Part shown: piece by piece, positions 47,136 to 62,361 of the stretch
Numbering within the stretch: the stretch's first letter is position 1
Layout of the letters: every line of letters starts with the position of its first letter
NCBI GenBank assembly: GCA_050949565.1
Contig: JBMNFY010000008.1
Span: forward strand, 341,488-405,487
Length of the DNA stretch: 64,000 nucleotides
Reading direction: 5' to 3'
Source: Kiritimatiellia bacterium
GTDB taxonomy: Bacteria; Verrucomicrobiota; Kiritimatiellia; RFP12; UBA1067
Notes under the pieces: model-generated
What the model was told of the DNA's origin: nothing
The model's input: the letters and a program-made list of their open reading frames with translations, nothing else
Database searches by the model: none
Translations under genes and position numbers: made by a program

Positions 47136-47189
47136 TCGTGACGTACACGATGGGGTTTGTTTGACGGAAGCGGAAGGGAAGGACGGGGC

Positions 47190-49511
47190 ATGAAATGTTT
47201 CGCACATACGGCACGGCACCGAGAAGATTGGGAGCCGCTTAAAACGCACCTGCTGAACGTGGCCGTTCGCGCCCGCCAATTCGCCTCTGCTTTCGGTGCA
47301 GGCGTCGAGGGCTATATTGCCGGCCTGCTCCACGATCTGGGGAAGTACGGGATACGGTTTCAAGAACGGTTGCACGGCAAGGGACGGCACATCGACCACT
47401 GGACTGCTGGTGCGTGGGCCGCAATAAAGCAATATGGGAAAACAGGCCGTTGTCTTGCGTTAGTTGCGCAGGGTCATCATTTGGGGTTGCAGCAAGACCA
47501 TAAGAGTTTCCTTGATAAAATTTGTACCCGTACGCCTTCTCCCGGCACAACGCTGTCAGCGGACTCTATGAACGAATTGTTGCAACAGTTCGCAGAGGAC
47601 GGATTGTCGTGGCCTGCCTTGCAGAAGTCGTTTTATAACCGGACGGGCAAAAGCTGCTCCGACATGCTGGACGTTCGGATGCTGTTTTCGGCACTCGTCG
47701 ACGCGGACTACCTCGAGACCGAAAAGTTTATCAATACGGTCGAGGTCAAGCCGCAACGGATGGCCGCGCCACTGCTCCAAGCACCGCAAGCGTTTGATGC
47801 TTTAACCCGACACATTGCGAAACTGAACACGAAGCACGGGAACTTGCGTTCAGATGTCGCGGTTATGCGAGCGACCCTGCTTGAGTCCTGCCTTGCGGCG
47901 GCGAAGACTTCTCAAAAGGCTTTTACGTTGAGTGCTCCCACGGGATCGGGGAAAACGCTTTCGATGCTGGCCTTCGCCTTGCAGCACGCCATCGAAAATC
48001 CAGACATCTCCCGCATTATCGTTGTCCTTCCCTTCCTCAACATCGTCGAGCAAACGGCGCTGGTTTACCGTGAGGTGTTTAAGGGTTTTCCAAACGGTTA
48101 CGTGATCGAACATCACAGTCTTGCAGGAACTCGCTCGACTGAGGGCAGAGACAATGACGAGGATCAAGAAAGTGCCGCATACCGTGAACGTCTGGCCGCT
48201 GAAAACTGGGACGCTCCCGTCATCATCACGACAAGCGTGCAGTTCTTTGAGTCGATCTTCGCGAACCGTCCCTCGGCATGCCGCAAGCTGCACAACGTCG
48301 CACGAAGCATCGTCCTGTTTGACGAGGCCCAGACACTCCCCTCTGAACTGGCCATCCACACGCTGACAGCTCTTTCCCGTCTGGTTGAGCGTTACCAGAC
48401 GACGGTCGTGTTTGCAACAGCTACGCAACCGGCTTTCTCCGCGCTCCATCAAGAAACGCTGAAGTGGTGTGCGCAAGGGTGGTCGCCCAGCTCCATGCTC
48501 ACTCGTGAAACGGAAACGCAGTTGTTCGGTAATGCGCGTCGGGTTCGTTTTGAATGGGGTGCCAAAGATGACCGTCTGTCATGGGAAGCGGTCGCCGATA
48601 GGATGCTGGGTGGGGGACACAAGCAGGCGCTATGCGTGATCAACACCAAGAAACAGGCACATGAACTGACAGCCTGCCTGTGTTCGAAAATGTCGCCTGA
48701 AGAACGAGACTCCGTTTTCCATTTTTCAACGGACATGTGTCCTCAGCATCGACGGGATCGACTCACGGAGATCAAAGCGCGTCTGGATGCGCACCAGCCC
48801 TGTTATTTGGTTGCGACGCAGTGCATCGAGGCGGGGGTGGATATCAGCTTCCCCGTTGTTTTCCGTGCTTGGGCTCCGCTGGAGGCGATTATCCAAACCG
48901 CGGGTCGTTGCAATAGGAACAATGAACTCTTCCCCGAAAAAGGCATTTGCCATGTCTTCACGCCTATCGAAGAAAAATTCCCGATGGGATTTTACGGTAG
49001 TGTAACGGCAGTCACACGCTCATACGTTGAGTCACTTGATGAAGAAGCCAAGGTGTATCTTGATGACCCATCGGTCATCGAGACGTACTACACCAGACTT
49101 TACGATGTTCTAAACCAACCAACTTCGGCTAAAAAATTCAAAGACATCTGCGAAGCGCTGGAGGGGTCTGATTTCATAACTGTCGCTGAGAAGTATCGGT
49201 TGATCGAACAGGACATGGTGAATCTGGTCGTGCCCTACGGTGAAGAAGGGCGTCAACTGATGGAGGCCGTCCATAAGATCGGGCTAAACGCCGACTGGTC
49301 GCGCAAGGCGCAACTTTATTCCGTAGCCGTCCGCCGTCCAAGGCCAGGCGACCCCATTCGAGATATCATGGAGCCCGCGCCGATTTTCAAGCGGAGCGAG
49401 CGGCTCGAATCAGAAGACTGGTTCCTTTGCACGGCGAATGCGAAATATGACGAATTAACAGGACTAGAAGTTCCGCATGGCAATGATTTTTGCGATTTTT
49501 GCGAGGTGTAA
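47190..49511 (+). CDS. cas3: CRISPR-associated HD nuclease/helicase Cas3
   Basis: LLHDLGKY, LVDAD, APTGSGKT, FDEAQ, TATQP, ATQCIEAGVDISF, QTAGRCNR. Confidence 0.96.
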   Translation: MKCFAHTARHREDWEPLKTHLLNVAVRARQFASAFGAGVEGYIAGLLHDLGKYGIRFQERLHGKGRHIDHWTAGAWAAIKQYGKTGRCLALVAQGHHLGLQQDHKSFLDKICTRTPSPGTTLSADSMNELLQQFAEDGLSWPALQKSFYNRTGKSCSDMLDVRMLFSALVDADYLETEKFINTVEVKPQRMAAPLLQAPQAFDALTRHIAKLNTKHGNLRSDVAVMRATLLESCLAAAKTSQKAFTLSAPTGSGKTLSMLAFALQHAIENPDISRIIVVLPFLNIVEQTALVYREVFKGFPNGYVIEHHSLAGTRSTEGRDNDEDQESAAYRERLAAENWDAPVIITTSVQFFESIFANRPSACRKLHNVARSIVLFDEAQTLPSELAIHTLTALSRLVERYQTTVVFATATQPAFSALHQETLKWCAQGWSPSSMLTRETETQLFGNARRVRFEWGAKDDRLSWEAVADRMLGGGHKQALCVINTKKQAHELTACLCSKMSPEERDSVFHFSTDMCPQHRRDRLTEIKARLDAHQPCYLVATQCIEAGVDISFPVVFRAWAPLEAIIQTAGRCNRNNELFPEKGICHVFTPIEEKFPMGFYGSVTAVTRSYVESLDEEAKVYLDDPSVIETYYTRLYDVLNQPTSAKKFKDICEALEGSDFITVAEKYRLIEQDMVNLVVPYGEEGRQLMEAVHKIGLNADWSRKAQLYSVAVRRPRPGDPIRDIMEPAPIFKRSERLESEDWFLCTANAKYDELTGLEVPHGNDFCDFCEV

Positions 49512-49624
49512 AAAAGCGCGACACCGTTTAAAGTGCCGCGCCCCAAATAGCACCTGCACAACAAGCACTGTTTCAATTCACGCCTTCGAAAGGCGAGAGA
49601 GCAATATAGCATAAGTGAATTTTT

Positions 49625-49675
49625 TGACAAAACCAGAAACTTGTCATTGCTTGTTGAGCAGAAATGTGATAACGT
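49625..49675 (+). promoter_or_regulatory. Putative internal cascade promoter with inverted repeat
   Basis: TGACAA-N10-TTGTCA directly followed by TTGCTT-N17-TAACGT. Confidence 0.45.
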
Positions 49676-49685
49676 TGCACCACCA

Positions 49686-50432
49686 ATGGATACTACAACC
49701 TTTACGCTAAAATGTTGGGGGCCGTTCGCCTGCTTCTCACGTCCCGACGGCGGGAAAGTCGAACGTCTCTCCTACCCTGTTCCGCCGCCTTCGGCGGTGC
49801 GGGGGATCTTCAGTGCCATCTACTCTAAACCCATCGAGTTCTGGTGGCAGCCGGTGAGAGTCGAGGTGCTGAAGCCGATTCAGTATATCGCCCTGCGCCG
49901 AAATGAAGTTAAAGATAAGATCTCGGTTGACGCTACTCAGATCCAGAAGTGGATGGAAGGCGAAGAGATCGTTCCGTTGGTGGCGGATGCCGACACGTCC
50001 TACTTCAATAACGACAAAAAAGGACGCACCCAACGCCAGACCATGGCGTTAAAAGATGTGGCCTATAGGCTGCACGCCAAGATCGTGCCCTGGCCGGAGT
50101 TCGCGAATCAAGTCAAGGGACTGGAGGCGCAATTCATCCGCCGGGCCGAAAAGGGCAAGTGCTTCTATCAGCCGGCTTTTGGCTGCCGCGAATTTGCAGC
50201 CTATTTCGAGCCCGTCACCGACGAGAAATTCGCCCAGCCGTCTGAACCGCCGGAAAAAAGCGCTACGCAGAACATAGGGCTGATGGTCTATGACACATTC
50301 GACCTCTCCGTCAAAAACCCGCCCGGCACCGCATCACCTTTCGTCACGCTATTCCATGCCAATCTAGAGAACGGCATAATGGAGATTCCGCCTTTCGAAA
50401 GTGACGCCGTACTCAAGCCCCCAAGGGAGTGA
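49686..50432 (+). CDS. cas5: Type I-C Cas5 (Cas5d)
   Basis: WGPFACFSRP..ERLSYPVPPPSAVRG, RRNEV, RTQR, YQPAFGCREF. Confidence 0.95.
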   Translation: MDTTTFTLKCWGPFACFSRPDGGKVERLSYPVPPPSAVRGIFSAIYSKPIEFWWQPVRVEVLKPIQYIALRRNEVKDKISVDATQIQKWMEGEEIVPLVADADTSYFNNDKKGRTQRQTMALKDVAYRLHAKIVPWPEFANQVKGLEAQFIRRAEKGKCFYQPAFGCREFAAYFEPVTDEKFAQPSEPPEKSATQNIGLMVYDTFDLSVKNPPGTASPFVTLFHANLENGIMEIPPFESDAVLKPPRE

Positions 50433-50434
50433 CC

Positions 50435-52342
50435 ATGCTACACTTGCTCGCCGATTATGCCCGCGACATCGGACTGGCCGCAGAGCCCGGCTTCGTTGCT
50501 AAAGAAATCCGATGGTGTCTGCTCTTTAAGAAAGACGGCACCTTTTCGGAGGTCGTTGACCTCTCTGGAGGCGACAAAAAGTCCAAAGGTTTGTTGTTTC
50601 CTAAATGCCCGGCACTCTCGCACAGCGAACTGATCGGTGGTTCGTCAGGCAGGAGCCAAGTCCTTTATGAAAGCGCTCAAATAATTGCCCTGATGTTCAA
50701 GGAAAATGACACTGATAAGGATAAAGACCGAATTCAAGGCAAACACAACTTCTTCGTCTCCTCTCTGGCGGACTGCGCCCAACACGCCATGCCCGAACTG
50801 GCAAATGTTGCGAAGACGTTGTCAGACAAAGCTTCCTGCACACAAATCGCGGCCGCGCTGAAAGAGAAAAAAGCGAAACCGTCCGACAAGGTAACCATCG
50901 CGGTGGACTTTGCGCGCCCTTTGGATTCATCCGCATGGCACGACTGGTGGCGCAACTTCCGCATAAAACTTGCCGATTCAACCGACAAAAAAAAGCCGAA
51001 GAAGAAAAAAGCTGATGCGTCTCTCATGCTGGATTTCATCACCGGCGAAACTATTACACCGTGCCTCACGCAGGGCAAGATCAGCAATCTCTCCGATGTC
51101 GGCGGCCAATCCTTTGGTGATGTGTTCATCGGCTTTGACAAAGAATCGTTTCGTTCATTCGGTTTTAAGCAGGGAGAAAACGCAGCCGTTTCTGAGGAGA
51201 ATGCGGCGGTCTATCGTGAAGCACTCAACCATTTGCTCAAAAACCACAGTCGGCGGCTTGGGAAGTCCAAAGTGGTCTACTGGTACAAAGGAAAGGTGAA
51301 ACCAGAAGACGATCCAATTGAAATGCTGGCACCTCGCGAAAAAGAAACCAAGGAAGACCTGTCTTTCGACGGGGACGATTTCGATCGACAGCAGGATAAA
51401 GCTGTCGCATTAAGCAATGCCAGAAGGTTGTTGGACTCACTCAAAACCGGTGAGCGACGCGATCTCGGGGAAGCGGCTTTCTACGTCATGGTGTTGTCCG
51501 GAGCATCCGGACGGATCATGATCCGCGACTGGATTGAAGGGCAGTTCGGTCAACTTGCTCAAAACATTGCCGACTGGTTTGAGGATTTTGAAATCGTGGC
51601 TCGATACGGGCAAGGCATGGCACCCTCTCCCAAATTCATGGCCGTCATGGGGGCAACCGTTCGGGAGTTGAAAGAACTGAATGCGCCATTTGTTGCCGCC
51701 ATGTTTCGAGCAGCGCTAGGCGGACGCAACGTCCCGATTCCGCAAAGTGCGTTAGCAGCCGCGTACGCACGCTTCAAGATTGATTTGATCTCGACCGATC
51801 CGAGAACAAATAAACCCAAGGCGTTCAATCATGCCCGGATGGGACTGATTAAAGCGTATCATCTCAGAAAAAAAGGAGGCGTGGAAGTGACCGAAAAACT
51901 CAACGAACGATTAGACTGTGTTCCCTATCAATGCGGGCGACTAATGGCGCTGCTTGCAGAGATTCAGCGGCGGGCCTTGGGGGATGTTGGTGCCGGCGTT
52001 GTCCAGCGGTACTATGCGGCCGCCTCTACCACGCCCGCTTTGGTGCTGGGCCGACTTATCCGGAACAGCAACGCGCACCTAGATAAGATTGGCGGCAATC
52101 TTGCCAGACGGTACGAAGACAAACTGGCGGAAGTCTGGGACGGCATCAGGACGGAGATCCCTAAAACGTTAACACTCGAAGAGCAGACTCTTTTCGCGAT
52201 GGGCTATTATCAACAGATTGCCCAAATCCGAAAAGACGCTGCCGATGCCATTGCGACGAAGAAAGCAAAGTCATCTGCGCAAGATGAAACAGAAACAACT
52301 GACCTGACAGACGACATTCAACTGCAAGGAGAATCACTATGA
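50435..52342 (+). CDS. cas8c: Type I-C Cas8c (Csd1)
   Basis: [50 protein letters not shown]; position in operon. Confidence 0.93.
51887..52342 (+). CDS. cas11: Putative Cas11c small subunit translated from an internal start in cas8c
   Basis: In-frame GTG preceded by AGGAGG (51874-51879) 7 nt upstream, at the start of the helical C-terminal domain. Confidence 0.7.
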
Positions 52343-53304
52343 ACACCCCGATTAAAAACCGCCACGAATTCCTATTCCTTTTCGACTGCGAAAATGGAAA
52401 CCCGAACGGCGATCCCGACATGGGCAACAGCCCGCGTATCGATCCACAGGATATGCACGGACTGATTTCAGACGTCGCCATTAAGCGTCGCATCCGCAAC
52501 TACGTCCAGATCAGGTGCGGGAACGAGATGCCTAACGCAATCTTCATTCAACACTCGAGCAACCTCAACGTACCGATCGCCGTCGCACATGAAAAGACCG
52601 AAGGCGGCCTGGAACTCACCACCGGAAAAGGCGGCGCGGGAAAAGCCAAAGTCGACCTTGCCCGTGACTGGATGTGCGCGAACTTTTATGACGTCCGCAC
52701 GTTCGGTGCGGTCATGAGCACAGGAGCGAATGCCGGACAAGTACGCGGGCCTGTCCAGCTTACATTCGCCCGTTCTGTCGATCCGGTCTTACCAATGGAT
52801 ATCTCAATTACGCGTATGGCCGTTGCTGTGGGGGATCCAAAGAAGTGTAAGTCCAGCGAGGACTACCAAAAACTTGCGGATGACACGCCTGAAGACCAAT
52901 TGAGAACCATGGGACGCAAGGCTTTGATTCCTTATGGCTTGTTTATTGGAAGGGGCTTTGTCAGCGCGAATCTTGCGGCGCAAACTGGGTTTTCCGATGC
53001 CGACCTTGAACTTTTGTGGGAAGCGATCATGAACATGTACGAACAGGATCGCTCAGCCAGCAAGGGGCTGATGTCCGTACGTCGGCTCTACGTGTTCAAA
53101 CATGTCGGAATGGCGACCAATGAGCAGCGTGAACGTGAAGCCATGCTGGGATGCGCTCCTGCTCACAAGCTTTTTGATCTGGTTGAGAAACGGATCCAGC
53201 GTGTCGAGGTGCCCCGCGCTTTTTCAGACTACGAAGCTTCCATCCCGACAAAGGAACAGTTGGAACCTCTGTTGCCCCCGGGTGTCGAAGTCAAGGTCTA
53301 CTAG
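52339..53304 (+). CDS. cas7: Type I-C Cas7 (Csd2)
   Basis: [49 protein letters not shown]. Confidence 0.96.
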
Positions 53305-53347
53305 CGCTGCTCCATGGCATTGCTCTCCCGCTCTCCCGCTTGCGCGG

Positions 53348-53621
53348 TGACCCGCGACTTGCGACCCGCGACTCGCGGTGACACGGCAAAACCGACGCCG
53401 TGCGCCGCCCCTGCCACCGCAGGTCGCAAGTCGCAGGTCGCGAGTCATCCGAAGAAGGAGGTGCCCCGCGACTCGCGGTGCTGCGGCAAGCCCGACGCCG
53501 TGCGCCACCCCTGCCACCGCAGGTCGCGAGTCATCCGAAGAAGGAGGCGACCCGCGACCCGCAGCCCGACGCCACGCGCCGACCCTGCCGCCGCAGGTCG
53601 CAAGTCGCAGGTCGCGAGTCA
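53348..53621. repeat. Three heptamer-built hairpin repeat units upstream of the four-helix-bundle gene
   Basis: Units 53348-53447, 53462-53533 and 53548-53621; left arm TGACCCGCGACTTGCGAC.., right arm ..GTCGCAAGTCGCAGGTCGCGAGTCA; linker TCCGAAGAAGGAGG. Confidence 0.9.
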
Positions 53622-53651
53622 AAACACAACCAGGCCAGAAAGGAACGCATA

Positions 53652-54410
53652 ATGTCAAAGCCCCCCTTCGGACGTTTCGGCGGATACCGCAAACTGCACT
53701 CTTTCGGTTTCGTCTGCCTCGTTTACCACGCCACGACGCGCTTCTGCCGACGGGTCTATCCGTGGAAGGAAGACCCGCTGGGCAAGACAAGCGGCCAGAT
53801 GGTCGGCGCGGCGCGTTCGGCGCGGCAGAATATCGTCGAGGCCTCGTCCCGCGCCAGCACGTCGAAGGAAACCGAAATCAAACTGCTGGACGTGGCAAAA
53901 GCCAGTCTGGACGAACTGCTCGGCGATTACGAGGCGTTCCTGATCGACAACGATCAGTTAGTGTGGTCGGAAAAAGACGAGCGCTGGCAGACCGTCGCCG
54001 CGTTGAAGTTGGATGAGTTCTCGGCGACCGAGGACGTGCTCCACGAATTCAGCCGCCACGTCATCGCGATGCGCCATCGTTTCGCGGACTGGTTGGAGCA
54101 TGAGGATCCATACGTCGCCGCCAACGCGATCATTGTGATAATCAATCGGGCGGCGAGCCTTCTTTTTCGGCAAATGGAACGGGCCATGGCTGATTTCGAG
54201 CGGGAGGGCGGTTTTCGCGAACGCATGACGCGTCTTCGAATTGAACAGCGCGAGGCGTTGAAAGCGGCGGAGCCCCCGCCGCCGTCCTGCCCGGCCTGCG
54301 GCAAGCCGATGACCCGCCGCAAGGCCAAGACCGGGCCGAATGCCGGCAAGCCCTTCTGGGGCTGCACCGGCTACCCGGCCTGTAAGGCGGTTCAGGAGAT
54401 AGAGCAGTGA
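53652..54410 (+). CDS. Four-helix-bundle (23S IVP/Avd-like) protein with suffix domain and topoisomerase-type C4 zinc ribbon
   Basis: GGYRKLHSF..QMVGAARSARQNIVE..LLDVAKASLDELLGDYE..FEREGGFRERMT; CPACGKPM..FWGCTGYPAC; SD GAAAGGA. Confidence 0.85.
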   Translation: MSKPPFGRFGGYRKLHSFGFVCLVYHATTRFCRRVYPWKEDPLGKTSGQMVGAARSARQNIVEASSRASTSKETEIKLLDVAKASLDELLGDYEAFLIDNDQLVWSEKDERWQTVAALKLDEFSATEDVLHEFSRHVIAMRHRFADWLEHEDPYVAANAIIVIINRAASLLFRQMERAMADFEREGGFRERMTRLRIEQREALKAAEPPPPSCPACGKPMTRRKAKTGPNAGKPFWGCTGYPACKAVQEIEQ

Positions 54411-55312
54411 TGACCCGCGACAAACGACCCGCGACCCGCAGTGACGCGGCAAGACCGACGCCACGCGCCGACCCTGCCGCCGAAAGTCGCAAGTCGCAAG
54501 TCGCGAGTCACCAGACAAAAGTGATGACCCGCGACCAACGACCCGCGACCCGCAGTGACGTGGCAAGACCGACGCCACGCGCCGACCCTGCCGCCGCAGG
54601 TCGCGAGTCGCAAGTCGCCAGCCGCCCCTATCCCGAAGACCAGCTTCTGCCGCTTTCAGCCGTAAGCCAGTATGTTCACTGTCCCCGGAGGTGCGCATTG
54701 ATTCACTTGGAGCAGGCATGGTCTGAGAATGTCTTCACCGCCGAGGGGCGCGTGCTCCATGACAAGGTGGACAGCGGCAAGAAAGAGTCGCGCGGCGACC
54801 TGAAGATCCTCCGCAGTCTCCGCCTGCGCTCGTTGCGTCTCGGCATCACCGGTATCGCGGACGTGGTCGAACTGCACCGTTGCGCACCGTCCGAGGGCGG
54901 TGTATCGGTGCCGGGGATCAGCGGCACATGGCTGCCGTTCCCCGTTGAATACAAGCGCGGCGCGGCCAGAAACATCCGCTGCTACGAAGTCCAGCTCTGC
55001 GCACAGGCGCTCTGCCTTGAGGAAATGCTGAACGCTCGGATTCCGGAAGGCGCGCTTTTTCTCGGCGAGAAGCAACACCGGTCAGCAGTTACATTCACGG
55101 ATGCGCTGCGTTCGGAAACCGAGGAGGTCTGCCTCGCCTTGCAGAAGTTGTTTGCCGAAGGCGTCACGCCCCCGGCGGCCTACAGCAAACGCTGCTCGTC
55201 CTGCTCCCTCTTTGAAGCCTGCCTGCCGAAATCCGCAGGCGCCGGCAAGTCCGCCCGCGCATGGCTTGCCCGCGAACTCGACACACTCGACCGCATGGAG
55301 CCGGAAAAATGA
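54407..55312 (+). CDS. cas4: Cas4 with repeat-derived N-terminal extension
   Basis: Core starts YPEDQLLPLSAVSQYVHCPRR; GIADVVE, PVEYKRG, QLCAQALCLEEM, CSSCSLFEAC. Confidence 0.9.
   Translation: MMTRDKRPATRSDAARPTPRADPAAESRKSQVASHQTKVMTRDQRPATRSDVARPTPRADPAAAGRESQVASRPYPEDQLLPLSAVSQYVHCPRRCALIHLEQAWSENVFTAEGRVLHDKVDSGKKESRGDLKILRSLRLRSLRLGITGIADVVELHRCAPSEGGVSVPGISGTWLPFPVEYKRGAARNIRCYEVQLCAQALCLEEMLNARIPEGALFLGEKQHRSAVTFTDALRSETEEVCLALQKLFAEGVTPPAAYSKRCSSCSLFEACLPKSAGAGKSARAWLARELDTLDRMEPEK
54411..54622. repeat. Two further hairpin repeat units (114-bp period) encoding the Cas4 N-terminal extension
   Basis: Units 54411-54510 and 54525 to about 54622; peptide MTRD.RPATRSD.ARPTPRADPAA occurs twice. 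Confidence 0.88.
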
Positions 55313-56334
55313 AGAAGTTGCTCAACACATTGTATGTGACCACGCAAGGCGCTTATCTGCGCCAAGAGGGCGAGACGGTTGTGGTGTCGATCGACCGCGC
55401 GGATGTCCTGAGGTTGCCGATCCACACGCTCTCGGGAATTGTCTGTTTCGGGCAGGTCGCCTGCAGCCCGCCACTGCTTGGACTCTGTGGCGAGCGGGGT
55501 GTGCATGTCAGCTTTCTCACGGAACGGGGAAAATTCTTGGCGCGTGTCACGGGGCCGGTCTCCGGCAACGTGCTACTCAGGCGCGAACAGGTGCGGCGCG
55601 CCGACAAGCCGGAGGCTGCACTGGAGATTGCCCGCAGCTTCGTCTTGGGAAAGCTCGCCAACAGCCGCACCGTGCTGCAACGGGCGCAGCGTGACCACGA
55701 TGTCGGCCCGTCCGTCGCCAAGGCCGTCGATGCGCTGGCCGACGTGATCCGGCGCACACGGCGCGCGGCGGATATCGACACCCTGCGGGGTTTAGAAGGA
55801 GAGGGCGCGGGGAGTTACTTTGAGGTCTTTGACCGCATGGTCGTATCACAAAGCGACGCATTTTCGATGCAGAAGGGACGCAGCCGCCGACCGCCGCTCG
55901 ATCCTCTAAACGCATTGCTCTCATTCTTGTACACGATCTTGGCGCACGATTGCGAAGCCGCGCTGGAAGGGGTCGGGCTTGATCCGCAGATCGGCTTTCT
56001 GCATGCGCTGCGGCCCGGGCGTCCGAGTCTGGCGCTCGATCTGATGGAAGGGTTCCGTTCCATTCTGGCCGACCGCGTCGCGCTTTCGCTGATCAACCTC
56101 AATCAAATCAACGGCAAAGGGTTCACGGTCACGGAGTCAGGCGCGGTCATGATGGACGACGAAACCCGGAAGACCGTTCTGCAGGCGTGGCAGAAAAAGA
56201 AACAGGAGACGATCCAGCATCCGTTCCTGAACGAAAAAGTCGAAATCGGGCTCTTACCGCACGCGCAGGCATTGTTGTTGGCGCGTCATTTGCGCGGCGA
56301 CCTCGATGGTTACCCGCCGTTTCTGTTGAAGTGA
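55309..56334 (+). CDS. cas1: Type I-C Cas1
   Basis: MKKLLNTLYVTTQG, SGNVLLRREQ, RGLEGEGA, RRPPLDPLNALLSFLY, GLDPQIGFLH, LALDLME. Confidence 0.97.
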   Translation: MKKLLNTLYVTTQGAYLRQEGETVVVSIDRADVLRLPIHTLSGIVCFGQVACSPPLLGLCGERGVHVSFLTERGKFLARVTGPVSGNVLLRREQVRRADKPEAALEIARSFVLGKLANSRTVLQRAQRDHDVGPSVAKAVDALADVIRRTRRAADIDTLRGLEGEGAGSYFEVFDRMVVSQSDAFSMQKGRSRRPPLDPLNALLSFLYTILAHDCEAALEGVGLDPQIGFLHALRPGRPSLALDLMEGFRSILADRVALSLINLNQINGKGFTVTESGAVMMDDETRKTVLQAWQKKKQETIQHPFLNEKVEIGLLPHAQALLLARHLRGDLDGYPPFLLK

Positions 56335-56350
56335 GAGGGGGGAGTATTGT

Positions 56351-56641
56351 ATGCTTGTTCTCGTCAGTTACGATGTCAGCACGGTCGATTTGTCGGGGCG
56401 TCGCCGTCTGCGTCATGTGGCAAAAACGTGTGAGAACTACGGGATTCGCGTGCAGAACTCCGTGTTCGAATGCAATGTTGACCAGGCTCAATGGACAGCG
56501 TTGCGGGCAAAGTTGTTGGATATCTTCGATCCCGAGACAGACAGCCTGCGCTTTTATTTCCTGGGCAATGCCTATCAGCGCCGCATTGAGCACCAAGGAG
56601 CCAAGCCCGCAGTGGACGTTGAAGAGCCGCTTATTCTTTAA
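56351..56641 (+). CDS. cas2: Cas2
   Basis: MLVLVSYDVST..RRLRHVAKTCENYGIRVQNSVFEC..DSLRFY. Confidence 0.97.
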   Translation: MLVLVSYDVSTVDLSGRRRLRHVAKTCENYGIRVQNSVFECNVDQAQWTALRAKLLDIFDPETDSLRFYFLGNAYQRRIEHQGAKPAVDVEEPLIL

Positions 56642-56819
56642 CGCGAACCCCAAGCGAGCAACTTTTGCCTAGGGAGGTTCGCGGACTTTGCAACTCGTTG
56701 TTGTGCAACCACTTACGCGAGTGCTTTGTTCTTTGACAACTGAACATCCCTTATTTTCCGCCGGGTACGCGGAATCATTCACCTTTCCCATTGCGGGAGA
56801 AGGTGTTACAGTACCCGCC
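56642..56819 (+). promoter_or_regulatory. CRISPR leader
   Basis: Non-coding 178 bp between cas2 and first repeat; GCGAACC..GGTTCGC inverted motif typical of I-C leaders. Confidence 0.8.
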
Positions 56820-59800
56820 GTCGCGCCCCATGCGGGGCGCGTGAATTGAAACGAAAAAGATACAACTCGACCCCCCGTCGCGCCCCATGCGGGGCGCGTG
56901 AATTGAAACTGCCAGCCGCGCGCGCCGACCGCGTACGCCCCCTCCGGGTCGCGCCCCATGCGGGGCGCGTGAATTGAAACCGTGCGCAGCGTGATGAACG
57001 CGCAGGAGGCGCGGTCGCGCCCCATGCGGGGCGCGTGAATTGAAACTTCTCTGTATTGCGTTCGCCGTCCGCCGTGGTCGGGTCGCGCCCCATGCGGGGC
57101 GCGTGAATTGAAACGGTTCTGGAGCGAACAGCGCTACACGCTTTTGCGTCGCGCCCCACGCGGGGCGCGTGAATTGAAACAACCCCCCCGCGCAAATTTT
57201 TTTTTGTCACCAAAGTCGCGCCCCATGCGGGGCGCGTGAATTGAAACCATCACTCCGATGGGCGAGAAAAGCGGGACGATCTGGTCGCGCCCCATGCGGG
57301 GCGCGTGAATTGAAACCCCAGGCGTGGTAGCGGCTGTGCTGGTGCTGGTGGTCGCGCCCCATGCGGGGCGCGTGAATTGAAACTGACTGTAGTTTTTTAT
57401 CGTCGCGGCGCGTCCTGGTCGCGCCCCATGCGGGGCGCGTGAATTGAAACAAGATCGATGATGGTGCGAGTCCGCTGTCGCACGGTCGCGCCCCATGCGG
57501 GGCGCGTGAATTGAAACCGCCGGTGGGCTTGGTACGCCGGCAGAAAGGGAGGTCGCGCCCCATGCGGGGCGCGTGAATTGAAACCTCGATGCGTCGATGA
57601 ACGCGATTGACCGCCTGGGTCGCGCCCCATGCGGGGCGCGTGAATTGAAACAATTGATGTCTCGCCCATCTCGTGATGATTTCCGGTCGCGCCCCATGCG
57701 GGGCGCGTGAATTGAAACATAGCCTCTCGCGAGGATGACGCGACCGGCACACGGTCGCGCCCCATGCGGGGCGCGTGAATTGAAACGGCAATGGTAGAGG
57801 TAAGCATACAGGTTGATCGGGTCGCGCCCCATGCGGGGCGCGTGAATTGAAACAAACAGCCGACAATCTCAATCTCAATGCTGGCGGTCGCGCCCCATGC
57901 GGGGCGCGTGAATTGAAACGGCGGCACCTACCGCCAGACCGGGGACCGCTCGGTCGCGCCCCATGCGGGGCGCGTGAATTGAAACGCACTAAGATAAACA
58001 AGCCACTCCAACATCCTGGTCGCGCCCCATGCGGGGCGCGTGAATTGAAACCATTTTCTCCTGCTGTCCGGTCTTTCGAGAACGGGTCGCGCCCCATGCG
58101 GGGCGCGTGAATTGAAACTAAGAGCAAGCAAGAGCAGATATGCGGGTGGGAGGTCGCGCCCCATGCGGGGCGCGTGAATTGAAACAAAAACCGAAGTCTG
58201 CGACCACCCTTGGTCATCAGGTCGCGCCCCATGCGGGGCGCGTGAATTGAAACTTGGGCCATCATGGCGGGTCGGTGGAGGGCGTTGGTCGCGCCCCATG
58301 CGGGGCGCGTGAATTGAAACCGCCTGCACATTACACGAATGCTCGTACGCACCCGGTCGCGCCCCATGCGGGGCGCGTGAATTGAAACTGCGAGTCCGCA
58401 GGATTCTCGAGTGGCTTGTTTGTCGCGCCCCATGCGGGGCGCGTGAATTGAAACATGCTCATCCTTGCTAATAAAGGCGCATTGTTGAGTCGCGCCCCAT
58501 GCGGGGCGCGTGAATTGAAACATGTGGACGTCGATTCGTGTCCCGTCTCCACAAGTCGCGCCCCATGCGGGGCGCGTGAATTGAAACGATGTTCAACCTT
58601 GCGATGACCCCTGTGGGCGTGTCGCGCCCCATGCGGGGCGCGTGAATTGAAACATCCCGCATCCGCACTCGCGGGCGGGAAATTAAAGTCGCGCCCCATG
58701 CGGGGCGCGTGAATTGAAACTCCCACAGCCGTGGGTTTTTGAAGTTCGCGTGGAGTCGCGCCCCATGCGGGGCGCGTGAATTGAAACTGCGGCAATGAAA
58801 CAGAGGTCAGAAAGTAGCAATGTCGCGCCCCATGCGGGGCGCGTGAATTGAAACACAGGCTGGATGTAGCACCAGTAGTCATCCACAAGTCGCGCCCCAT
58901 GCGGGGCGCGTGAATTGAAACATTACCAGTATGCTCCTATCCTCGGCATTGCCCGGTCGCGCCCCATGCGGGGCGCGTGAATTGAAACACGTTTCTACTA
59001 ACATTCATCTTGTTGGGTGGGGTCGCGCCCCATGCGGGGCGCGTGAATTGAAACTTCTTAGATCATTGTTTGCCGTCGTGTGAAGGTGTCGCGCCCCATG
59101 CGGGGCGCGTGAATTGAAACATCGTTATTCAGTATGTCCATCATTTCGTTACCTCGTCGCGCCCCATGCGGGGCGCGTGAATTGAAACAACCGTTTGTTG
59201 TAACGAATGTCAAGCGACGATGTCGCGCCCCATGCGGGGCGCGTGAATTGAAACTTCAGAGGGCGGGCCGGGTGTTGGTGGTAGCGTACGTCGCGCCCCA
59301 TGCGGGGCGCGTGAATTGAAACCCTGATTATCAATCGCACCAACTAGATTTTGCCGTCGCGCCCCATGCGGGGCGCGTGAATTGAAACATATTGCACCTG
59401 GCCATCGACAATTTCTACCAGTCGCGCCCCATGCGGGGCGCGTGAATTGAAACGCACTGGATAACGCGCGTTAATCCGGTGTGGTTCGTCGCGCCCCATG
59501 CGGGGCGCGTGAATTGAAACCCTGACGGTCGTGATGTTGTGTTTTACAAGACAAGTCGCGCCCCATGCGGGGCGCGTGAATTGAAACAACTCGCTAATCC
59601 TGTTGTCAGCGATAAGGTCTGGTCGCGCCCCATGCGGGGCGCGTGAATTGAAACCCACAGATTGGCGCGCTCACCGCCGAGGTTGATGTCGCGCCCCATG
59701 CGGGGCGCGTGAATTGAAACTATCCTGTCCGCTAACTTAAGCAGGTCTGCGTGTGTCGCGCCCCATGCGGGGCGCGTGAATTGAAACCACACAGTTCACC

Positions 59801-62193
59801 CTCGCCGGTGCCGCTATGGGGTCGCGCCCCATGCGGGGCGCGTGAATTGAAACTAATCGCCTTCACGGCAATCTTTAATTCTTCCGTCGCGCCCCATGCG
59901 GGGCGCGTGAATTGAAACCCGTACACCCCCGCGAGGTATTTCGGGAAGCTGTGTCGCGCCCCATGCGGGGCGCGTGAATTGAAACAGCTTACGCAAGCCC
60001 CCTTGTGGGTCGGCATCCACGTCGCGCCCCATGCGGGGCGCGTGAATTGAAACGCCCCACGCCGCCCCACGCCCGCCCGCGCGCTGGTCGCGCCCCACGC
60101 GGGGCGCGTGAATTGAAACTTGTACGCGGGCAGAAAGGGAACAAGAATGAAAGTCGCGCCCCACGCGGGGCGCGTGAATTGAAACCCTTGGGGGCGTATC
60201 GCGTGGGAGTCCTAAGCGTGTCGCGCCCCACGCGGGGCGCGTGAATTGAAACCCCGGACTACGCGGATAAATACGTTGCGCGGATGTCGCGCCCCACGCG
60301 GGGCGCGTGAATTGAAACTGTTTGCGTCTGCGCGATTATGTCTGTGTCATGGTCGCGCCCCACGCGGGGCGCGTGAATTGAAACCGTACATTGAGGCATT
60401 GCAAGAATCATATCTGGTCGCGCCCCACGCGGGGCGCGTGAATTGAAACAACAATGCGGGTAGAGGAACAAATAACGTGACGGTCGCGCCCCACGCGGGG
60501 CGCGTGAATTGAAACACGACACCGCCGCCCGTGTCAGCCCCTCGCGTTTGTCGCGCCCCACGCGGGGCGCGTGAATTGAAACTCCAACGCCTTGACCGCC
60601 TCGGCCCGCACCGCCTGTCGCGCCCCATGCGGGGCGCGTGAATTGAAACCTTTCCCCGCGTTCGTTCTTTCCCCGCGTTCGTGGTCGCGCCCCATGCGGG
60701 GCGCGTGAATTGAAACTTTCCGTCGACTACGATAGCGTACTTGTTCATACGGTCGCGCCCCATGCGGGGCGCGTGAATTGAAACACGGGGGGTGTGAGGG
60801 GAGAGGGAGGTGCTTGGAGGTCGCGCCCCATGCGGGGCGCGTGAATTGAAACTCAGATGCGAGGGGCAAACCACAAGCACCTTGCGGGTCGCGCCCCATG
60901 CGGGGCGCGTGAATTGAAACCGTTCTTTCCCCACGTTCTTTCCCCGCGTGACCGGTCGCGCCCCATGCGGGGCGCGTGAATTGAAACGATGCGAGCACGG
61001 GCGGACGCGCGTGGGCGATCAGGTCGCGCCCCATGCGGGGCGCGTGAATTGAAACTGATGAGCATCACATTCACGGGATGCAAAGAGGGGTCGCGCCCCA
61101 TGCGGGGCGCGTGAATTGAAACCAATGCGGCCGCAATGTGGAATGCCCTCCGTGAGGTCGCGCCCCATGCGGGGCGCGTGAATTGAAACCTTGGCGTGGC
61201 GCAAGTGCCGGTGGAATATCAGGGTCGCGCCCCATGCGGGGCGCGTGAATTGAAACTTCGGTAGTCCACATTCCGGCGTTTGCAGTCTGGTCGCGCCCCA
61301 TGCGGGGCGCGTGAATTGAAACAAGGCCGGTGTTTCAAAGACAGTTGGTTAGATGGTCGCGCCCCATGCGGGGCGCGTGAATTGAAACACTCCGGTCGGC
61401 AATCAGGTTGCGATTTACAGCGGGTCGCGCCCCATGCGGGGCGCGTGAATTGAAACCATCCACGAATCTGTACCAATTTGCTGAAATGGGTCGCGCCCCA
61501 TGCGGGGCGCGTGAATTGAAACTGGAGGTTGCTTGGCGCTCACATCGGCAAACCTGGTCGCGCCCCATGCGGGGCGCGTGAATTGAAACAGAGGCAGACC
61601 TGTACCATGATCTGAGCATGCTGGTCGCGCCCCATGCGGGGCGCGTGAATTGAAACGCCGCACCCGCAAACATGGGAGTTGGTGTGGGAGGTCGCGCCCC
61701 ATGCGGGGCGCGTGAATTGAAACAGACAGACGTGGCCGGAGTGCTGCGGGTGGCAGGGTCGCGCCCCATGCGGGGCGCGTGAATTGAAACCAGATTGCAG
61801 ACGGCTCCCCATCAGATACACCGGGGTCGCGCCCCATGCGGGGCGCGTGAATTGAAACTGGTGATGCGCTTGACGCAATCCCACACCACTCCGGTCGCGC
61901 CCCATGCGGGGCGCGTGAATTGAAACGCCGACACTGGGACTCCGAAAAACGTTGGTGCGCGGTCGCGCCCCATGCGGGGCGCGTGAATTGAAACCCGCTT
62001 GCGCGACCGCAGCGGCTGGGCGGCGGGCGTCGCGCCCCATGCGGGGCGCGTGAATTGAAACCCACCACAAATCACCAGTGAACCGCGTCCAGCCGTCGCG
62101 CCCCACGCGGGGCGCGTGAATTGAAACCTGTTGCTCATCGGTTTTATCATGTTTTTAGGCGTCGCGCCCCACGCGGGGCGCGTGAGTTGAAAC
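56820..62193 (+). CRISPR. Type I-C CRISPR array, about 81 repeats and 80 spacers
   Basis: 33-bp repeat GTCGCGCCCCATGCGGGGCGCGTGAATTGAAAC; spacers mostly 32-36 nt; degenerate terminal repeat (..GAGTTGAAAC) at 62161. Confidence 0.99.
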
Positions 62194-62280
62194 AATTGAA
62201 ACGGCAACTCTAAAGCCGAAATGGCTGGCTGCGAACAAGCGCGGCGGGAGGTTGGAACAATGGTAATCGGATAAGGTGAA

Positions 62281-62361
62281 TGACTTGCGACTTGCGACTC
62301 GCGGTAATGCGGCAAAGTTGACGCCGTGCGCCGTTCCTGCCGCCGAAGGTCACAGGTCACC
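62281..62361. repeat. Degenerate copy of the cas7-cas4 hairpin repeat downstream of the array
   Basis: TGACTTGCGACTTGCGACTCGCGGTAATGCGGCAAAGTTGACGCCGTGCGCCGTTCCTGCCGCCGAAGGTCACAGGTCAC aligns to unit 53348-53447. Confidence 0.8.

Follow-up and report, generated by a model that had tools for sequence, protein, structure and literature searches.

The stretch of DNA analysed here, called the window throughout, comprises 64,000 nucleotides of the Kiritimatiellia bacterium assembly GCA_050949565.1 (contig JBMNFY010000008.1, positions 341,488 to 405,487, forward strand). Its subject is a CRISPR array in which long series of consecutive spacers seem to end in G. The array, the sole one with its repeat in the 4.66-Mb genome, is adjoined by a full type I-C gene set, cas3-cas5-cas8c-cas7-cas4-cas1-cas2, recognised by Pfam matches. 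Counted from the first letter of the window, the locus is laid out as follows.

47157..56641, + strand: type I-C cas operon (Pfam matches)
47157-49511, + strand: cas3 (Pfam Cas3 domains)
49641-50432, + strand: cas5 (Pfam Cas_Cas5d)
50429-52342, + strand: cas8c (Pfam Cas_Csd1)
52339-53304, + strand: cas7 (Pfam Cas_Cas7)
53314-54640, + strand: inserted gene with repetitive extragenic palindromic (REP)-like palindromes, between cas7 and cas4
about 54521-55312, + strand: cas4 (Pfam Cas_Cas4; Cys cluster and nuclease motifs intact in the translation)
55261-56334, + strand: cas1 (Pfam Cas_Cas1)
56351-56641, + strand: cas2 (Pfam CRISPR_Cas2)
56642..56819, + strand: leader, 178 nt, its last 23 nt, GAGAAGGTGTTACAGTACCCGCC, conserved
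56820..62193, + strand: CRISPR array, 81 repeats of 33 nt and 80 spacers (automated parsing; last repeat degenerate)

Type I-C repeats typically have 32-33 nt, a G+C hairpin and the end ATTGAAAC. The array repeat, GTCGCGCCCCATGCGGGGCGCGTGAATTGAAAC (33 nt), conforms to this form, as do the repeats of the relatives' I-C arrays. The leader-proximal, newest end of the array is at the low coordinates and the degenerate last repeat at the high ones. Because the leader and cas genes lie at the low end and the degenerate repeat at the other, S1 is taken as the newest spacer and S80 as the oldest; repeats R1 to R81 are numbered in the same direction. In the present leader, CC stands directly 5' of repeat 1 with no extra G, and the junction reads ...GTACCCGCC followed at once by GTCGCG. 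The leader end is conserved in five arrays with this repeat, in two of which the DNA upstream of the last 23 nt is unrelated; a matching end with G or A at -3 lies 5' of the first repeat in the retrieved sequences L058, L066, L062 and L068. Related leader ends also occur in I-C arrays of the family.

From S1 to S80 the terminal bases read C, GGG, C, A, then G in 17 consecutive spacers, 34 mixed bases (eight of them G), G in 20 consecutive spacers, and CCC. G accounts for 0.282 of the bases inside spacers versus 48 of the 80 terminal bases, and the penultimate base has no bias. A runs test on the terminal base is strongly non-random (17 runs observed vs 39.4 expected, Wald-Wolfowitz z = -5.25); 17 or fewer runs arose in 0 of 200000 shuffles of the terminal bases, and a G run of at least 20 in a fraction of 1.45e-4 of 200000 shuffles. 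Mean spacer length is 34.12 nt in the newer long run, 34.25 nt in the older and 33.50 nt between them, giving units of 67.1, 67.3 and 66.5 bp. A preliminary description of the window, made by hand count, had reported the two long runs (before repeats 8-24 and 59-78), the eight Gs among the 34 spacers between them, the same unit lengths, the unbiased penultimate base and a leader ending in C, all of which automated parsing reproduces. It had also called the middle block AT-richer; the direction is right (GC 0.534 vs 0.574), the difference only marginal (p=0.05). Two features had escaped it: S2-S4 form a third, short G run, and position 12 of the repeat is polymorphic (T/C), with C in R6, R50-R57 and R80-R81. 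All 40 units with a run G are T-type. Below, stretches of the array in which every repeat is preceded by G are called 'on' and the others 'off'; the present state of the array is 'off'. The array is subdivided thus.

56853..56876, + strand: S1, aberrant 24-nt 'spacer' resembling the leader end
56910..57114, + strand: third, short 'on' run, S2-S4, each followed by G and a repeat (R3-R5)
57148..57180, + strand: R6, lone C-type repeat (C at position 12)
57248..58388, + strand: 'on' run 1, S7-S23 (17 spacers), each followed by G and a T-type repeat (R8-R24)
58389..60649, + strand: 'off' block, S24-S57 (34 spacers), mixed terminal bases, 33-bp units
60087..60582, + strand: R50-R57, eight consecutive C-type repeats within the 'off' block
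60650..61994, + strand: 'on' run 2, S58-S77 (20 spacers), each followed by G and a T-type repeat (R59-R78)
61995..62193, + strand: oldest units, S78-S80, with R80-R81 C-type

Whether the G derives from the invaders was read from protospacers. The whole array was searched against 221 family genomes, contigs with short high-identity matches were retrieved, and the 80 spacers were compared with those contigs, with 20 metagenome stretches carrying the same repeat, and with one viral contig, the single IMG/VR match to the start of S61. An IMG/VR scan with the start of S72 gave 0 matches, and a search of the INPHARED phages with the whole array in distant mode returned one record with repeat-like similarity only. 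Left out of the counts were S9 (its match includes the G and has two other differing letters at unplaced positions), S11 (three diverged target homologues disagree, with G, A and C), S77 (diverged matches only) and the weak viral-contig matches of S6, S28-S31 and S45, whose last bases mostly agree. BLAST of the 80 spacers against their own genome found one diverged self-match, of S77 (29/32), with no PAM-like flank (PAM, protospacer adjacent motif) and with differing ends; it says nothing on the G.

Protospacers of 11 run spacers were seen directly, and nine of them match to the penultimate base and then carry a base other than G: T for S3, S13 and S15, A for S7, S10, S14 and S69, and C for S61 and S67. 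Up to the G position the match is perfect for S13 and S15 (33/33 each) and for S61 and S69 (34/34 each). The other two, S16 and S66, have a G in the target, the S66 match being weak (87%). Four further run spacers were judged from the ends of alignments to phage contigs: the matches of S4, S12 and S20 end one base before the G (the next letter is A for S12; for S20 only the stop of the match was seen), and that of S65 takes in the G. In total, the target base is not G in 12 of the 15 run spacers. All 11 spacers assessed outside the runs have a templated last base, namely six of six seen directly (S5, S32, S51, S56, S57 and S78) and S28, S34, S53, S55 and S79, whose matches to contigs of public sequencing runs extend through it. 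The difference in templating between spacers in and outside runs is significant overall (Fisher p=4.9e-5) and for directly seen protospacers only (p=2.3e-3). By the mapping to phage contigs that had been suggested earlier, the G is an untemplated base; it is not spacer sequence and behaves as part of the repeat. Programs that extract spacers will give 40 of them a false terminal G.

Length, orientation and flanks of the run spacers are consistent with this assignment. If the G is counted, run spacers exceed the others in length (34.18 vs 33.49 nt, p=2.7e-4); if it is left out, they do not (33.18 vs 33.49 nt, p=0.09). Flanks were read in the retrieved sequences L047-L052, L057, L061, L063, L073, L082 and L083. 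The 16 best protospacers all have the same orientation, in both regimes, and on their 5' flank have C at -1 in 14/16, a pyrimidine (Y) at -2 in 15/16 and G at -3 in 12/16; the triplet is GCC in six, GTC in four and another in the rest. TTC is the usual 5' PAM of the type I-C systems that have been studied, without being defining. The preliminary description had assumed it here, but it precedes 0 of the 16, and the lineage may read a GYC-like PAM. The spacer-side site is likewise unchanged: whether 'on' or 'off', the first spacer base is the one next to the flanking C in the target, and GAAAC closes the repeat. As the G is untemplated and length, orientation and PAM side are unaltered, it is an additional base lying between spacer and repeat, both of them normal. 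According to the accessible part of a type I-C study (bioRxiv 10.1101/2022.05.30.494039), joining of the trimmed non-PAM end to the plus strand, at the border of leader and repeat, creates that junction.

Two of the flanks differ from the common forms. The target of S69 is flanked by GTA in L063 vs GTC in a contig of the public run X5, and that of S61 (L083) by GTT; both are possible PAM escape variants.

These results bear directly on readings in which the G would come from the prespacer, either as a PAM-distal motif set by Cas4 or trimming, or as the retained complement of the PAM C in flipped spacers. Cas4 proteins can define end motifs in other systems, and the PAM-side flank here does end in C, whose complement is G. 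The target base is nevertheless not G in 12/15, with a perfect or near-perfect match up to that base, and the run spacers are all normally oriented with C on the 5' flank; since the G is absent from the target, no trimming rule can produce it. The cas4 gene is intact, and L062 and L068, which have ordinary arrays, carry the neighbouring insert too. A prespacer origin is thus exceedingly improbable, and with it go two earlier proposals, a retained base of a flipped GAA/TTC PAM and a switch in Cas4 trimming.

A second adaptation module with another ruler, either the genome's own type I-E Cas1-Cas2 or one on a mobile element, could also be imagined to have acted during the G epochs, and a second Cas1-2-4 working in trans had been among the suggestions. 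The genome does have a second CRISPR-Cas system, a complete type I-E operon with cas1e and cas2e on contig C6, and it is the only other adaptation module. Against its involvement, the two regimes do not differ in orientation, in 5' flank (GYC, C at -1) or in the length of spacers once the G is taken off; the type I-E PAM (AAG) is not seen among the run protospacers; and if the nick were displaced on the present leader, the base copied would be C rather than G. We regard this explanation as having very little chance of being correct.

Assembly or sequencing error was examined with four public sequencing runs (X1, X2, X3 and X5), whose Logan unitigs and contigs were aligned to the array. Array parts without coverage in X3 or X5 were not counted as evidence, and as run shares were all <=0.17, no habitat or strain was named from them beyond these alignments. 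The suspicion has some ground: the window comes from a metagenome-assembled genome, and S1 (24 nt) and S2 (38 nt) at the leader-proximal end have odd lengths. A systematic insertion before GTCGCG would, however, strike every repeat rather than blocks of them, and a chimera of strains is countered by unitigs of X1 and X2, which match S14, S22, S59 and S73 with their G and parts of the flanking repeats with zero differences. Unitig depth is alike for spacers of all blocks (53-85 in X1, 76-149 in X2). Because units with and without G are reproduced exactly and independently in X1 and X2, the Gs are not an assembler artefact, and an artefactual origin of the pattern is highly implausible.

The newest end of the array has peculiarities of its own. 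S1 is identical to its own leader end at 14/24 positions and to the leader of L038 at 15/24 (binomial p about 1e-3 to 3e-4), and S2 has 38 nt. The array head looks disturbed, possibly through a leader remnant, aberrant integration or a mixed consensus.

We propose that in the three 'on' epochs the duplicated unit was 34 bp long, made up of G and the canonical 33-bp repeat, since the leader-repeat junction then probably carried a one-base insertion. Such a junction would read ...CCCGCC-G-GTCGCG.... Cas4-Cas1-Cas2 would attach the prespacer by its trimmed non-PAM 3' end to the plus strand where the leader ends; by analogy with other systems, the leader-side nick would be set by the leader or the junction, not counted back from within the repeat, and the spacer-side nick would keep its usual place, the 3' end of the repeat. 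The old repeat, lying downstream of the newly inserted spacer, would then retain the extra G, and gap filling would restore it in the new leader-proximal copy, so that later acquisitions would inherit the 'on' state; a canonical junction would give the 33-bp unit and the 'off' state. A state that perpetuates itself in this way fits the unbroken runs of 17 and 20. In the array the extra base is copied into each new repeat without interruption for 17, 20 and 3 units. A heritable one-base lengthening of the duplicated unit is a more ordinary explanation than a switch in Cas4 or in the integrase. It keeps the core of the preliminary description, that the array records two integration regimes, and essentially bears out one of the options listed there, integration shifted by 1 nt that copies an extra G, which here acts as part of a 34-bp unit.

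A junction of the predicted kind appears to be present in one public run. In X3, a 359-nt contig of depth 63 matches the leader over 56640-56817 with no difference and then continues at 57683, three letters at the jump fitting both sides and 32 letters lying beyond; it appears to read ...ACCCGCC G GTCGCG..., which would be the leader-plus-G allele. Several points weigh against the proposed origin. That reading of the X3 contig is deduced from the alignment coordinates of one joint, its letters being unseen. The present leader lacks the extra G, and the leader contigs of X1, X2 and X5 pass into repeat 1 with no extra base. A leader-junction pattern allowing 0-2 extra bases was found among the 221 family genomes in the own genome only; in IMG/VR the leader-plus-G junction had 0 matches, as had G plus the repeat; and the junction is absent from the four other retrieved arrays with a canonical leader. 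The target does carry G in 3/15 run spacers, a share compatible with the background of 0.282, where single cases prove nothing, and the evidence for run 2 is thinner, with three non-G targets vs two G (one a weak match). The order of the blocks comes from one assembly, the unitigs supporting single units without bridging them. Finally, the model leaves at least five state changes in 80 acquisitions unexplained.

Those changes can be followed along the array. From oldest to newest it holds two C-type repeats, one T-type, 20 T-type with G, one T-type without G (R58), eight C-type, 25 T-type, 17 T-type with G, one T-type without G (R7), one C-type (R6), three T-type with G and two T-type. Both T-to-C reversals come exactly one unit after a loss of the G (R58 then R57, R7 then R6), and between S5 and S4 position 12 (C to T) and the gain of the G changed together. 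We judge it about an even call that homologous exchange between co-resident strains replaced the head of the array, meaning the end of the leader and the first repeat, perhaps together with donor spacers. Exchange is favoured because the flips of the repeat single-nucleotide polymorphism (SNP) are linked to changes of the G, and because point mutation is too rare to account for some ten changes at two given sites in 80 acquisitions. Since the G falls outside the homology that repeats share, it cannot be lost by recombination inside the array. Head exchange would explain why the flips are linked, why R58 and R7 look like hybrids and why 'C then T' series occur three times in succession.

The same observations lend themselves to a history by recombination only, in which the G blocks were built in a sister lineage with a 34-bp unit and joined here by crossovers inside repeats. 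This would give the G the same origin as the junction insertion proposed above, with another history and no switching in place. It's a tenable possibility that we hold at somewhat under even. Position 12 flips one unit after the on-to-off boundaries, and R58 and R7 look hybrid, with the crossover 5' of position 12; two sites of the first repeat changed at once between S5 and S4; the three successive series of old C-type then T-type repeats repeat the usual order in L058, L064, L062, L071, L072 and L067; both junction alleles appear to occur in public runs; and two metagenome stretches, L055 and L074, share seven spacers and then differ on the trailer side. Set against this, none of the 20 metagenome stretches with the same repeat has a G run >5, and no spacer block is common to them and the array, apart from two single look-alike spacers near S32 and S40. 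'On' and 'off' blocks also target one phage lineage (S61, S57, S45, S31, S11 and S6 match one IMG/VR contig, several of them weakly), the unitig depth in X1 and X2 is similar across all blocks, both hybrid repeats require a crossover in the first 11 of 33 bases, and the metagenome mosaics can be assembly chimeras. Recombination of array blocks from another strain, raised in the preliminary description, therefore survives as a live explanation of the switching; it does not account for the source of the G.

If the junction insertion instead came and went in a single lineage without strain exchange, one G would have been gained and lost by slippage or repair at CC/G(G)TCGC. Most changes are indeed single steps (from C-type to T-type without G to T-type with G, and back), one base of a GG doublet can be lost, and the apparent X3 allele sits on a leader identical over 178 nt. 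Point mutation is nonetheless much too slow for about ten state changes in 80 acquisitions, counting both the G and T/C; reversals from T to C go with loss of the G, and one step alters both sites together. From the known chemistry, moreover, the minus strand of the junction would never be cut during integration, and faithful copying would be expected. We consider such an in-place indel unlikely.

Still less probable is that the G reflects a reversible one-base register switch operated by adaptation or repair (imprecise leader-side joining, disintegration), or a reset by phage-borne repeat units recombining with the first repeat. Were either true, the array would contain built-in epoch marks, and its head would be actively rewritten rather than a passive record.

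Integration at an internal site was also tried as an explanation. McGinn and Marraffini reportedly described, in 2016, ectopic integration in type II-A behind a spacer that mimics the leader, which could build blocks within an array. Here the spacers at the heads of the runs, S7 and S58, are not leader-like: S7 ends ...GATCT+G, the G being untemplated, and S58 ends ...TTCGT+G. This candidate was rejected.

The T/C blocks have a familiar basis. A mutated first repeat propagates, since new repeats copy the leader-proximal repeat, and thereby marks later units; the T/C blocks here and in the 20 metagenome stretches follow such first-repeat propagation. The extra G differs from SNP blocks of this kind in lying outside the canonical repeat, at the leader border, so that it also reports the leader-side nick. 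A further precedent for a misassigned border base is the last repeat base in type I-E (the G of AAG), which is PAM-derived. As here, a base at the border has another origin than a naive parse assigns to it; there, however, it is templated and at the PAM end, whereas here it is untemplated and at the non-PAM end.

In the metagenome stretches with the same repeat (L055-L074), position 12, which lies in the loop (ACGC or ATGC), flips in blocks across many arrays. As a rule, C-type repeats lie towards the trailer and T-type repeats towards the leader; L055, L059 and L069 are reversed or have several flips. L064 and L068 belong to one 24.7-kb metagenome contig with about 237 repeats behind one leader, an unusually long array.

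A close experimental likeness is in E. coli type I-E. In the accessible text of Goren et al. 2016 (PMC5039180), when one base was inserted upstream of the first inverted repeat, it was mostly duplicated to give a 29-bp repeat, and both rulers measure towards the spacer-side site, which is set by anchors inside the repeat. As here, the new repeats were 1 bp longer; those mutants, however, were engineered E. coli plasmids followed for one round of adaptation, whereas here a type I-C array found in nature went through 40 acquisitions, consecutive or in blocks, in its long state and reversed repeatedly. In S. thermophilus type II-A, as far as the available part of Kim et al. 2019 (PMC6895254) goes, no insertion shifted the leader-side site, and the second site lies 8 bp from an internal element. 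For Haloarcula type I-B, the part of Wang et al. 2016 available to us (PMC4872114) reports that duplication begins at the leader-repeat junction and that altered spacing gives aberrant sizes. Both systems have, as proposed here, the leader-repeat border as the first site and a ruler based on an internal motif; type I-B differs in that mutations around the junction left the duplicated length unchanged (PMC4872114). Natural arrays with length epochs are not described in the accessible sections of either paper (PMC6895254, PMC4872114). Nor did the wider literature, as judged by titles and the beginnings of abstracts, contain a natural array with such epochs or insertion mutants of type I-C. By analogy, the array can be regarded as the natural type I-C counterpart of the laboratory insertion mutants made in other types.

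Long runs are not a general habit of type I-C arrays. Among 26 I-C arrays of the family that were parsed (three have too few repeats), the longest runs of one base before the repeat are C x6 (genome G047) and G x5 (two arrays), and a scan of the GTDB genome_contigs with the repeat found two small arrays, both C-type and without runs. The six C-ending spacers of the related array in G047 (contig C230; L010/L032) are consecutive; an extra base may have been copied there as well, or the run may be due to chance, and no protospacers were found for those spacers.

The array offers a natural experiment on how the type I-C integrase picks its two cut sites. On the proposed mechanism the leader-side cut would follow the leader and the spacer-side cut the repeat, with a spacing of 34 bp tolerated over dozens of acquisitions. 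A skewed base at a spacer end, moreover, need not point to trimming rules or a PAM. Together, the loop SNP and the added G serve as haplotype tags, and with long reads could show the rate of head exchange among strains of a digester community.

Repeats of the host type also occur outside host arrays. Phage-like contigs that the array targets (L081, L063, L061, L056, L070 and L073) carry host-type I-C repeat units. The IMG/VR contig G221 (66.7 kb; L081) has three C-type-like repeats and two spacers in its last 1.1 kb, and positions 785-817 of L063 are a lone exact 33-nt repeat amid phage-like DNA. Phage mini-arrays and RNA anti-CRISPRs (compare PMC10651486) are candidate identities for these units; contigs that end in repeats could also be assembly chimeras.

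Some targets recur or are unusual in structure. S11 (57518-57551) and S50 (60120-60152) overlap on a conserved phage region just upstream of a start codon, homologues of which are present in L073 and G221, and other arrays have opposite-strand spacers from the same region. The target of S58 (60650-60683) and S62 (60921-60954) contains a tandem repeat of 13-17 nt.

The gene inserted between cas7 and cas4 has an open reading frame (ORF) at 53653-54410 with a weak match to a four-helix bundle (23S rRNA IVP) and a C-terminal zinc ribbon of the Top1 type. It is flanked by five copies of a palindromic REP-like element of about 110 nt, the last of which contains the likely start of cas4; L062 and L068 have the cas7-cas4 insert too, at 91-95% identity. 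For one arm of the element, 47 copies were counted genome-wide, one of them immediately past the array (62270-62350). At the type I-E locus (contig C6 of the own genome, G000; L079 9811-19941), an unassigned 319-amino-acid ORF lies between cse1 and cse2, and the array begins at the contig end.

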